This document shows, in pieces, positions 11,411 through 29,204 of a stretch of DNA of 64,000 bases. The stretch lies in assembly GCF_003334335.1 (NCBI RefSeq), contig NZ_QOWQ01000010.1, one strand, 5' to 3'. Under the pieces are notes generated by a model. That model was not told where the DNA came from, did no database searches, and saw only the letters and a program-made list of their open reading frames with translations. A program made the position numbers and the translations under genes. How positions within the stretch are numbered: the stretch's first letter is position 1; each line of letters begins with the position of its first letter. Source of the stretch: Escherichia coli. GTDB taxonomy: Bacteria; Pseudomonadota; Gammaproteobacteria; Enterobacterales; Enterobacteriaceae.

Positions 11411-11529
11411 AATCTCGCGCTAACAACCTGGAATCGAGCCGTCATACTACGGCGCAACGCCCTATAAAGTAAACGATGACCCTTCGGGAACTTCAGGGTA
11501 AAATGACTATCAAAATGTGAATTGTAGCT

Positions 11530-11563
11530 GACCTGGGACTTGTACCCGGGTCGGTATTTTTTT
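11530..11563 (+). terminator. Leader terminator/attenuator upstream of greA (GraL-type)
   Basis: GACCTGGG-ACTTGTA-CCCGGGTC hairpin followed by T7 run about 95 nt upstream of the greA ATG. Confidence 0.5.
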
Positions 11564-18214: not shown

Positions 18215-18301
18215 GCCGAGGTGGTGGAATTGGTAGACACGCTACCTTGAGGTGGTAGTGCCCAATAGGGCTTACGGGTTCAAGTCCCGTCCTCGGTACC
18301 A
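18215..18301 (+). tRNA. leuU: tRNA-Leu
   Basis: 87-nt sequence GCCGAGGTGGTGGAATTGGTAGACACGC...GGGTTCAAGTCCCGTCCTCGGTACCA with long variable arm and encoded CCA, 14 nt after secG stop. Confidence 0.93.
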
Positions 18302-22083: not shown

Positions 22084-22160
<77 letters not shown>

Positions 22161-22281
22161 CTTTCCCTTAGAGTCCTTTTTCAAATATACTGTGAAGACT
22201 TCGGCCTTCGTAGTGGGATTTGAAAAAATCCTTCTGGAAAGTGCTCCAGACCGCAGTTGCGGTTATAGGGTTCAGTTATAT

Positions 22282-22308
22282 AAAGCCCCGATTTATCGGG
22301 GTTTTTTG
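22282..22308 (+). terminator. Terminator/attenuator between metY and rimP
   Basis: AAAGCCCCGATTTATCGGGGTTTTTTG between the tRNA and the rimP start. Confidence 0.7.
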
Positions 22309-22366
22309 TTATCTGACTACAGAATAACTGGGCTTTAGGCCCTTTTTTTATGTCTTGGGGGTGGGC

Positions 22367-27039: not shown

Positions 27040-27125
27040 GGGTTCCATGCGGGATAAGGCGTTTACGCTGCATCCGGCATGGATTGCCTGATGTGACGCT
27101 GGCGCGTCTTATCAGGTCAACGTGA
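27040..27125. repeat. REP/BIME-type palindromic repeat
   Basis: GGGATAAGGCGTTTACGCTGCATCCGGCA and inverted partner ...CGCGTCTTATCAGG between infB and rbfA. Confidence 0.65.
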
Positions 27126-28540: not shown

Positions 28541-28592
28541 TGTTAACCGTCTTGCGATAACAGGTCGCTACGAGTAGAATATTGCCGCTTAA

Positions 28593-28958
<366 letters not shown>

Positions 28959-28972
28959 TTCTTGCGAGTTTC

Positions 28973-29003
28973 AGAAAAGGGGGCCTGAGTGGCCCCTTTT
29001 TTC
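28973..29003 (+). terminator. rpsO rho-independent terminator
   Basis: GAAAAGGGGGCCTGAGTGGCCCCTTTTTTC, 15 nt after rpsO stop. Confidence 0.8.
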
Positions 29004-29204
29004 AAGCTGACGGCAGCAATTCACTGGAAACTAATGTATTGTTGCTATGAATGATCTTCCGTTGCAGAGGTTCGCGCGGCTAATGAGAGGCTTTACCCAC
29101 ATAGAGCTGGGTTAGGGTTGTCATTAGTCGCGAGGATGCGCAGAAGATCGGGTATTAACACCAGTGCCGTAAGGTACTGTCTAAGAAAGAGAAAGGATAT
29201 TACA
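29004..29204 (+). promoter_or_regulatory. pnp 5' leader (autoregulatory, RNase III-processed region by established knowledge)
   Basis: About 200-nt untranslated leader between the rpsO terminator and the UUG start of pnp; exact structure not computed here. Confidence 0.5.

Follow-up and report, generated by a model that had tools for sequence, protein, structure and literature searches.

Elements of the rpsO-pnp control region in an Escherichia coli genome: a two-way terminator, the pnp leader hairpin, and the antisense RNA SraG

Introduction

What fills the 246 nt between rpsO and pnp in Escherichia coli, and how well can its elements be placed from raw sequence? Among the enzymes that degrade RNA, PNPase is a major one, and the spacer upstream of its gene is the classic case of a ribonuclease regulating its own mRNA. 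No fewer than five layers of control are packed into approximately 250 nt: termination, RNase III, PNPase together with RNase E, CsrA, and an antisense RNA.

Here we analyze the spacer within the window, that is, the whole stretch of 64,000 nt of E. coli DNA under study. An earlier note on this DNA had interpreted the interval as a terminator followed by a pnp leader with an RNase III hairpin, with the small RNA SraG on the opposite strand. Our results support this interpretation, the sequence being identical to that of the experimentally studied K-12 strain; all of the listed items are present, and their coordinates agree to 1-2 nt. We conclude that positions 28959-29204 are almost certainly the E. 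coli rpsO-pnp control region, which combines a two-way terminator, an RNase III-cleaved leader hairpin, and the antisense RNA SraG. The spacer and its elements are already known. The locus serves as a positive control, in which a known regulatory region was placed correctly from raw sequence, and it raises no new question.

Materials and Methods

Coordinates were converted from K-12 by the relation: window position = 29205 + 3311168 - K-12 position. Our own results concern sequence identity, RNA folds and their statistics, conservation and covariation, and the match to an RNA family. The gathering score of the Rfam SraG family (RF00082) is 50 bits.

For the comparative analysis, related loci were gathered with a degenerate pattern in pnp codons 19-27, i.e., outside the leader. 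In total, 120 loci were recovered, almost all of them from Enterobacterales. The pattern also matched a 3,655-nt contig of a MAG labelled Thermodesulfovibrionales (L017), which may be a bin contamination; otherwise it matched Enterobacterales and Aeromonas almost exclusively. MAFFT alignment of the 175-nt leaders was gappy, with 338 columns, and an alignment-free survey and a shorter anchored alignment were used instead. The latter is a structure-blind MAFFT alignment of positions -160 to -45, onto which the E. coli structure was projected.

Results

Location and conservation of the spacer

The genes around the spacer follow the order truB, rpsO, the 246-nt spacer, pnp, nlpI, and deaD, all on the plus strand. 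Since the rpsO stop codon occupies 28956-28958 and the TTG codon of pnp occupies 29205-29207, the interval 28959-29204 is exactly the intergenic spacer (Table 1). Pairwise alignment of positions 28900-29260 with K-12 MG1655 revealed zero differences, and the K-12 annotation gives the gene order rpsO, sraG, pnp. A 701-nt query across the spacer found a match in each of the 5,426 complete E. coli genomes, with an identity of at least 99% in 5,412 of them. Matches to the spacer in these genomes amount to 5,429 places. A plasmid carries one of them, and two occur together in at least one genome, which would mean a duplicated or plasmid-borne copy.

The rpsO P1 promoter and the S15 leader are located directly upstream of the spacer. 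Other Rfam matches in the window, at 11441-11562, 22249-22349, 27048-27118, 18215-18298, and 22084-22157, comprise the greA leader (127.5 bits), the rimP leader (102 bits), naRNA4/CssrE (68.1 bits), and two tRNAs.

Table 1. Positions of the features in and around the rpsO-pnp spacer (window coordinates).
Feature	Position	Strand	Details
rpsO P1 promoter	28552-28580		TTGCGA, 17-nt spacer, TAGAAT; consensus scan
S15 autoregulatory leader (Rfam RF00114)	28631-28745		117.6 bits
rpsO	28689-28958	+	stop TAA at 28956-28958
rpsO-pnp spacer	28959-29204		246 nt
GCGAGUUUC motif directly 5' of the terminator	28964-28972	+	candidate RNase E site
Bidirectional intrinsic terminator (T1 of rpsO on +; T of sraG on -)	28974-29002	both	fold, scan, Rfam SraG model
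sraG (b4449), 216-nt primary transcript, cis-antisense to the pnp leader	28975-29190	-	mapped from K-12 3311183-3311398
SraG-S, older 174-nt form	28975-29148	-	
pnp P2 transcription start, approximate	29047-29050	+	estimate, +/- 3 nt
Hairpin R, RNase III substrate of the pnp leader	29053-29149	+	fold, covariation
GGA in the invariant GCGAGGAUG, 3' arm of hairpin R	29134-29136	+	candidate upstream CsrA site
Small 7-bp hairpin between hairpin R and Shine-Dalgarno	29162-29179	+	fold
pnp ribosome-binding site	29193-29207	+	AAGGA 29193-29197, 7-nt spacer, UUG 29205-29207
sraG -10 box TAATAT	29197-29202	-	between pnp Shine-Dalgarno and UUG
pnp	from 29205	+	TTG start at 29205-29207

A terminator working on both strands

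The first element of the spacer is a GC-rich hairpin, in which RNAfold pairs 28974-28985 with 28991-29002 (12 bp, 5-nt loop). A strong terminator had been placed at 28973..29003 in the earlier note, and the fold narrows it to 28974-29002. The core of the hairpin consists of six G-C pairs formed by GGGGCC and GGCCCC (28980-28985 with 28991-28996), with an A-run at 28975-28978 on one side and a T-run at 28997-29002 on the other. Because the A-run precedes and the T-run follows the GC stem, termination is expected on both strands. On the plus strand, the hairpin has a folding energy of -19.9 kcal/mol (z -3.3; 1 of 200 shuffles was as stable), and on the minus strand -15.7 kcal/mol. On the latter strand, the GGGGCC/GGCCCC stem is followed by CUUUUCUG, so that the 3' end of sraG is an intrinsic terminator; the end of the Rfam SraG model also falls in this hairpin. 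A pattern scan for terminators listed the element on the minus strand only. We attribute the omission of the plus strand to the T-run being taken up by pairing with the A-run, so that no T tail remains free beyond the longest stem counted by the scan. The palindromic form, with the A-run, the GC stem, and the T-run, is found at most 80 nt from the rpsO stop codon in 73 of 99 species. Fontaine 2016 (PMC5029454) likewise describes a single bidirectional terminator that serves as T1 of rpsO and as the terminator of sraG.

The motif GCGAGUUUC immediately upstream of the hairpin probably is the RNase E site at which decay of the rpsO mRNA starts. RNase E has been reported to cut upstream of T1 (Fontaine 2016, PMC5029454), and GTTTC is present within 30 nt of the rpsO stop codon in 71 of 99 species. 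Both the GTTTC motif and the terminator are found further downstream in the Erwinia/Pantoea group, past an insertion of ~60 nt. These extra nucleotides separate the rpsO stop codon from the GCGAGUUUC-terminator unit in Erwinia, Pantoea, and Tatumella (L014, L015, L021, L042, L066, L073, L077, and others), whose spacers are ~300-318 nt long, compared with ~245 nt elsewhere.

Hairpin R of the pnp leader

Downstream of the terminator, the fold of 29004-29204 (201 nt; -71.8 kcal/mol, z -5.0) is dominated by one long imperfect hairpin. This is the duplex that the earlier note expected from folding 29004..29204, and we find it at 29053-29149 with 37 bp and a z-score of -5.8. Taken alone, hairpin R is 97 nt long and contains 37 pairs (17 GC, 15 AU, and 5 GU), with an energy of -46.1 kcal/mol that none of 200 shuffles reached. 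Its core is retained when a transcript of P2 length is folded. Hairpin R, which follows the rpsO terminator in the pnp 5' leader, is thus an imperfect duplex of more than two helical turns. The RNase III-cleaved hairpin of pnp autoregulation, which had been proposed for this leader, is therefore present, and its sequence is identical to that of K-12.

The hairpin is retained across Enterobacterales. In the alignment-free fold survey, an equivalent of hairpin R was observed in ~90 of 99 species. The largest unbranched hairpin of the spacer has, in the median, 38 pairs, a span of 95 nt, and an end 56 nt before the start codon, the corresponding E. coli values being 37 pairs, 97 nt, and 55 nt. 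Its distance from the start codon is thus fixed across the order.

The anchored alignment demonstrates a structure conserved through compensatory changes in related species. Standard pairs occupy 88.1% of the cells, compared with 36-48% after a shift of the partners by 1-3 columns. Of the 37 pairs, 27 have changes on both sides (16.4 +/- 1.5 in shuffles, with 0 of 500 shuffles reaching 27), and such changes are found in 213 cells (65-100 in the shifted controls). The base and the tip of the hairpin are variable and covarying, and the middle is frozen. Two near-invariant blocks, 29071-29088 and 29119-29138, are located opposite each other in the helix.

Across the order, these middle segments of both arms are at least 90% invariant and show no covariation. 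The frozen arms point to a sequence-specific constraint beyond pairing, e.g., contacts with RNase III, PNPase, S1, or CsrA, or double use of the same sequence by two RNAs.

P2 start, RNase III cuts, and a candidate CsrA site

The exact P2 start and the exact RNase III cut positions are our own estimates, made by combining published distances with the predicted helix. Cuts at +39 and +77 from the P2 start have been described (Fontaine 2016, PMC5029454). The resulting spacing of 38 nt, together with the usual 2-nt stagger, fits the helix only for cuts after 29085 and 29123, which puts the P2 start near 29047. By another route, the pnp RNA used in vitro spans nucleotides 1-234 and ends at nucleotide 79 of the ORF (Fontaine 2016, PMC5029454); this gives a leader of 155 nt and a P2 start at 29050. 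The two routes differ by 3 nt, and we place the start near 29047-29050. The consensus promoter scan did not find P2, and the rpsO P1 promoter (28552-28580) was the only one listed.

RNase III would accordingly cut at ~29085 (RIII1) and ~29123 (RIII2), within ~3 nt in this model of the helix, and both predicted positions are inside the invariant blocks. A further estimate comes from P1. Its start is expected at ~28587, judging by the -10 box at 28575-28580, and the product from P1 to RIII1, reported to be 500 nt long (Fontaine 2016, PMC5029454), then fits a cut near 29086. Cleavage of hairpin R by RNase III was reported in vivo as well as in vitro in the same source (PMC5029454).

The position of P2 also bears on the length of the leader, given as about 200 nt in the earlier note. 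Since P2 is inside the spacer, this length (29004-29204, 201 nt) applies only to transcripts reading through from P1; it does not hold for P2 transcripts, whose leader is ~155-158 nt.

The processed leader has two CsrA sites, one of them over the Shine-Dalgarno sequence (Park 2015, as summarised in Fontaine 2016, PMC5029454). A plausible candidate for the other one is the GGA at 29134-29136 in the 3' arm of hairpin R, which would be exposed only after RNase III and PNPase have processed the leader. The surrounding GGATG (29134-29138) is at least 90% conserved in the MAFFT alignment.

The small hairpin and the UUG start codon of pnp

A small hairpin is predicted downstream of hairpin R, ahead of the Shine-Dalgarno sequence (Table 1). 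Most species have a hairpin at this position, formed by unrelated sequences. The median z-score of the position is -3.0, compared with +0.2 for the coding control, and z is below -1.5 in 84% of species vs. 5% for the control. The passages of Fontaine 2016 (PMC5029454) dealing with hairpins, stem-loops, or secondary structure make no mention of it. On the opposite strand, the mirror of this hairpin is within the 5'-terminal 42 nt of SraG, which are needed for repression.

The UUG codon named in the earlier note as the start of pnp is confirmed. TTG at 29205 is the annotated start in both K-12 and RefSeq, and TTG starts pnp in 104 of the 107 species with enough upstream sequence (loci L003-L122); of the exceptions, one species has GUG, and two Aeromonas differ. 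The AAGGA sequence is also conserved among the related loci. The retention of TTG suggests that this weak start codon is itself under selection as part of pnp control.

The antisense RNA SraG

The minus strand of the spacer matches the Rfam SraG family (RF00082) at 28975-29146 over the complete model (1-177 of 177), with a score of 164.3 bits and an E-value of 5.4e-30. The match falls between rpsO and pnp and is antisense to both genes. Together with the K-12 annotation of b4449, it makes SraG more than the possible antisense RNA of the earlier note. Folding of the 216-nt RNA gives -62.3 kcal/mol (z -3.6). In a sample of 18 Enterobacterales genera, all 18 have SraG-family matches above the gathering score; the sampled Aeromonas have none above it.

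According to Fontaine 2016 (PMC5029454), SraG starts at a T, 42 nt upstream of the old annotation. The complement of position 29190 is indeed a T, and the hexamer TAATAT is 6 nt upstream of it, at 29197-29202 of the minus strand. Since this -10 box reaches within 2 nt of 29204, the upstream part of the promoter is in the first codons of pnp. No good -35 box was found in the minus-strand sequence of the promoter, in agreement with the low reported expression of SraG, and the consensus promoter scan did not find the sraG promoter. With its 5' end at 29190, SraG can pair up to ~3-5 nt from the pnp Shine-Dalgarno sequence. It overlaps the P2 transcript by ~141-144 nt and read-through transcripts by all of its 216 nt. 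In the literature, SraG is listed among the ProQ-associated antisense RNAs.

Discussion

Alternative interpretations

The minus-strand signal called SraG could be mainly a mirror of selection on the pnp leader, with SraG being a minor, perhaps lineage-restricted transcript; we consider this possible but rather doubtful. The helix of hairpin R speaks for it. Paired cells amount to 88.1% on the pnp strand vs. 77.3% on the SraG strand, and the alignment contains 507 G-U cells vs. 120 A-C cells, so that the helix is better kept on the pnp strand. Pairing is under selection in the pnp mRNA at least. The mirror of hairpin R on the minus strand is also less stable by 12.7 kcal/mol (-33.4 vs. -46.1 kcal/mol). 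Only 29 of 105 species retain the sraG promoter hexamer TAATAT unchanged, and mutation of this promoter raised pnp mRNA and PNPase by a factor of just 1.3 (Fontaine 2016, PMC5029454). However, SraG of E. coli has been detected by both Northern blot and circular RT-PCR, and a mutation in the -10 box abolishes the 216-nt RNA with the mentioned increase of pnp expression (Fontaine 2016, PMC5029454). The species with TAATAT are spread over several families of the order and include, e.g., Citrobacter, Photorhabdus, Yersinia, Rahnella, Pectobacterium, and Morganella, which suggests that the hexamer is ancestral. The A-run that enables termination on the minus strand is widely kept as well. In a scoring of -10-like hexamers, the plus-strand control scored equally high, both strands being alike in this A/T-rich stretch. 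A related suggestion, which we regard as tentative, is that SraG is made only in lineages that keep TAATAT between the Shine-Dalgarno sequence and UUG. The conservation of 'SraG' would then be driven mainly by the pnp leader, and the antisense RNA would be absent from, or started elsewhere in, Enterobacter, Klebsiella, Pantoea, and Erwinia.

Two other readings concern hairpin R and the start of pnp. Being very stable and located between two genes, hairpin R might be taken for an attenuator or terminator of rpsO read-through rather than a processing site. This is highly improbable, as no T-run follows 29149 (the sequence there is GGGTATTAAC), the hairpin is absent from the terminator scan, and it is located downstream of the P2 start and is thus part of pnp transcripts; moreover, its cleavage by RNase III was seen in vivo as well as in vitro (PMC5029454). 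The probability that pnp is coded from a TTG at 29118, with no long leader, is next to nil. An open frame at 29118-31340 (+) does appear in the ORF listing, yet both K-12 and RefSeq annotate the start at 29205, which has AAGGA 7 nt upstream and is conserved in 104 of 107 species, and a toe-print was obtained 15 nt from this UUG (Fontaine 2016, PMC5029454). Furthermore, the in-frame open stretch upstream of it varies from 1 to 81 codons among species and is mostly at most 12 codons long, and the upstream sequence is kept as paired RNA arms rather than as codons. The 740-aa ORF from 29118 was rejected as mechanical, its upstream extension being unconserved. A 58-aa ORF on the minus strand (29093-29269), which crosses the sraG promoter, was also set aside as mechanical.

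Proposed mechanism of control

We thus return to the reading of the spacer as the rpsO-pnp control region, and found nothing that contradicts it. For cleavages, transcript ends, and regulatory effects we rely on the literature on the identical sequence. This identity to K-12 means that the published mechanism applies directly; SraG transcription and RNase III cutting, in particular, are expected here from work on the K-12 sequence.

Most transcripts from rpsO P1 would stop at the hairpin at 28974-29002, and some would read through into pnp. Other pnp transcripts would start at P2, near 29047-29050, and both kinds would carry hairpin R. RNase III would then cut both arms of this hairpin, near 29085 and 29123, and PNPase would remove the small 5' fragment left after the cut. 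The mRNA exposed in this way would be open to RNase E, and CsrA could bind at the GGA of the former 3' arm and at the Shine-Dalgarno sequence. PNPase would thereby lower its own synthesis. This sequence of RNase III, PNPase, and RNase E with CsrA corresponds to pnp autoregulation as described in Fontaine 2016 (PMC5029454).

On the opposite strand, a weak promoter with the -10 box at 29197-29202 would start SraG at 29190. The RNA would run antisense through the whole leader and end at the shared two-way terminator hairpin. By perfect pairing with the leader to within a few nucleotides of the Shine-Dalgarno sequence, it would block 30S binding, create new RNase III sites, and modestly lower pnp mRNA and PNPase. 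Blocking of 30S in toe-prints and new RNase III cuts in the presence of SraG have been reported (Fontaine 2016, PMC5029454).

Comparison with known systems

RliD (Listeria) and ref41 (Enterococcus), which are cis-antisense RNAs near pnp in Firmicutes, as well as SymR and GadY, resemble SraG in being located opposite or beside a ribonuclease gene or leader with perfect pairing. RliD and ref41 have no high sequence homology with SraG, as noted in the discussion of Fontaine 2016 (PMC5029454).

We observed no difference from SraG of K-12 (b4449; RF00082), with which the RNA in the window shares the sequence, the full-length model match, the antisense position between rpsO and pnp, and the terminator. 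The Rfam model, whose match ends at 29146, is limited to the older 174-nt form, and the primary transcript mapped in 2016 is 42 nt longer, extending to 29190. Similarly, the pnp leader of Portier, Regnier, Hajnsdorf, and co-workers has the same sequence and the same long stem-loop, hairpin R, downstream of T1. The predicted cuts agree with the published system in their distances from P2 (+39 and +77) and in the length of the product from P1 (500 nt), with no difference.

Another case of this kind is the rnc-era operon, where RNase III regulates its own expression by cutting a hairpin in the 5' leader, which destabilizes the downstream message. In the literature, this operon is listed among the transcripts destabilized by RNase III. 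The pnp leader follows the same logic as the rnc leader, the likeness considered here being one of mechanism. The two systems differ in the role of the cleaving enzyme: in the rnc leader, RNase III regulates itself, whereas in the pnp leader it only opens the way for PNPase, RNase E, CsrA, and SraG.
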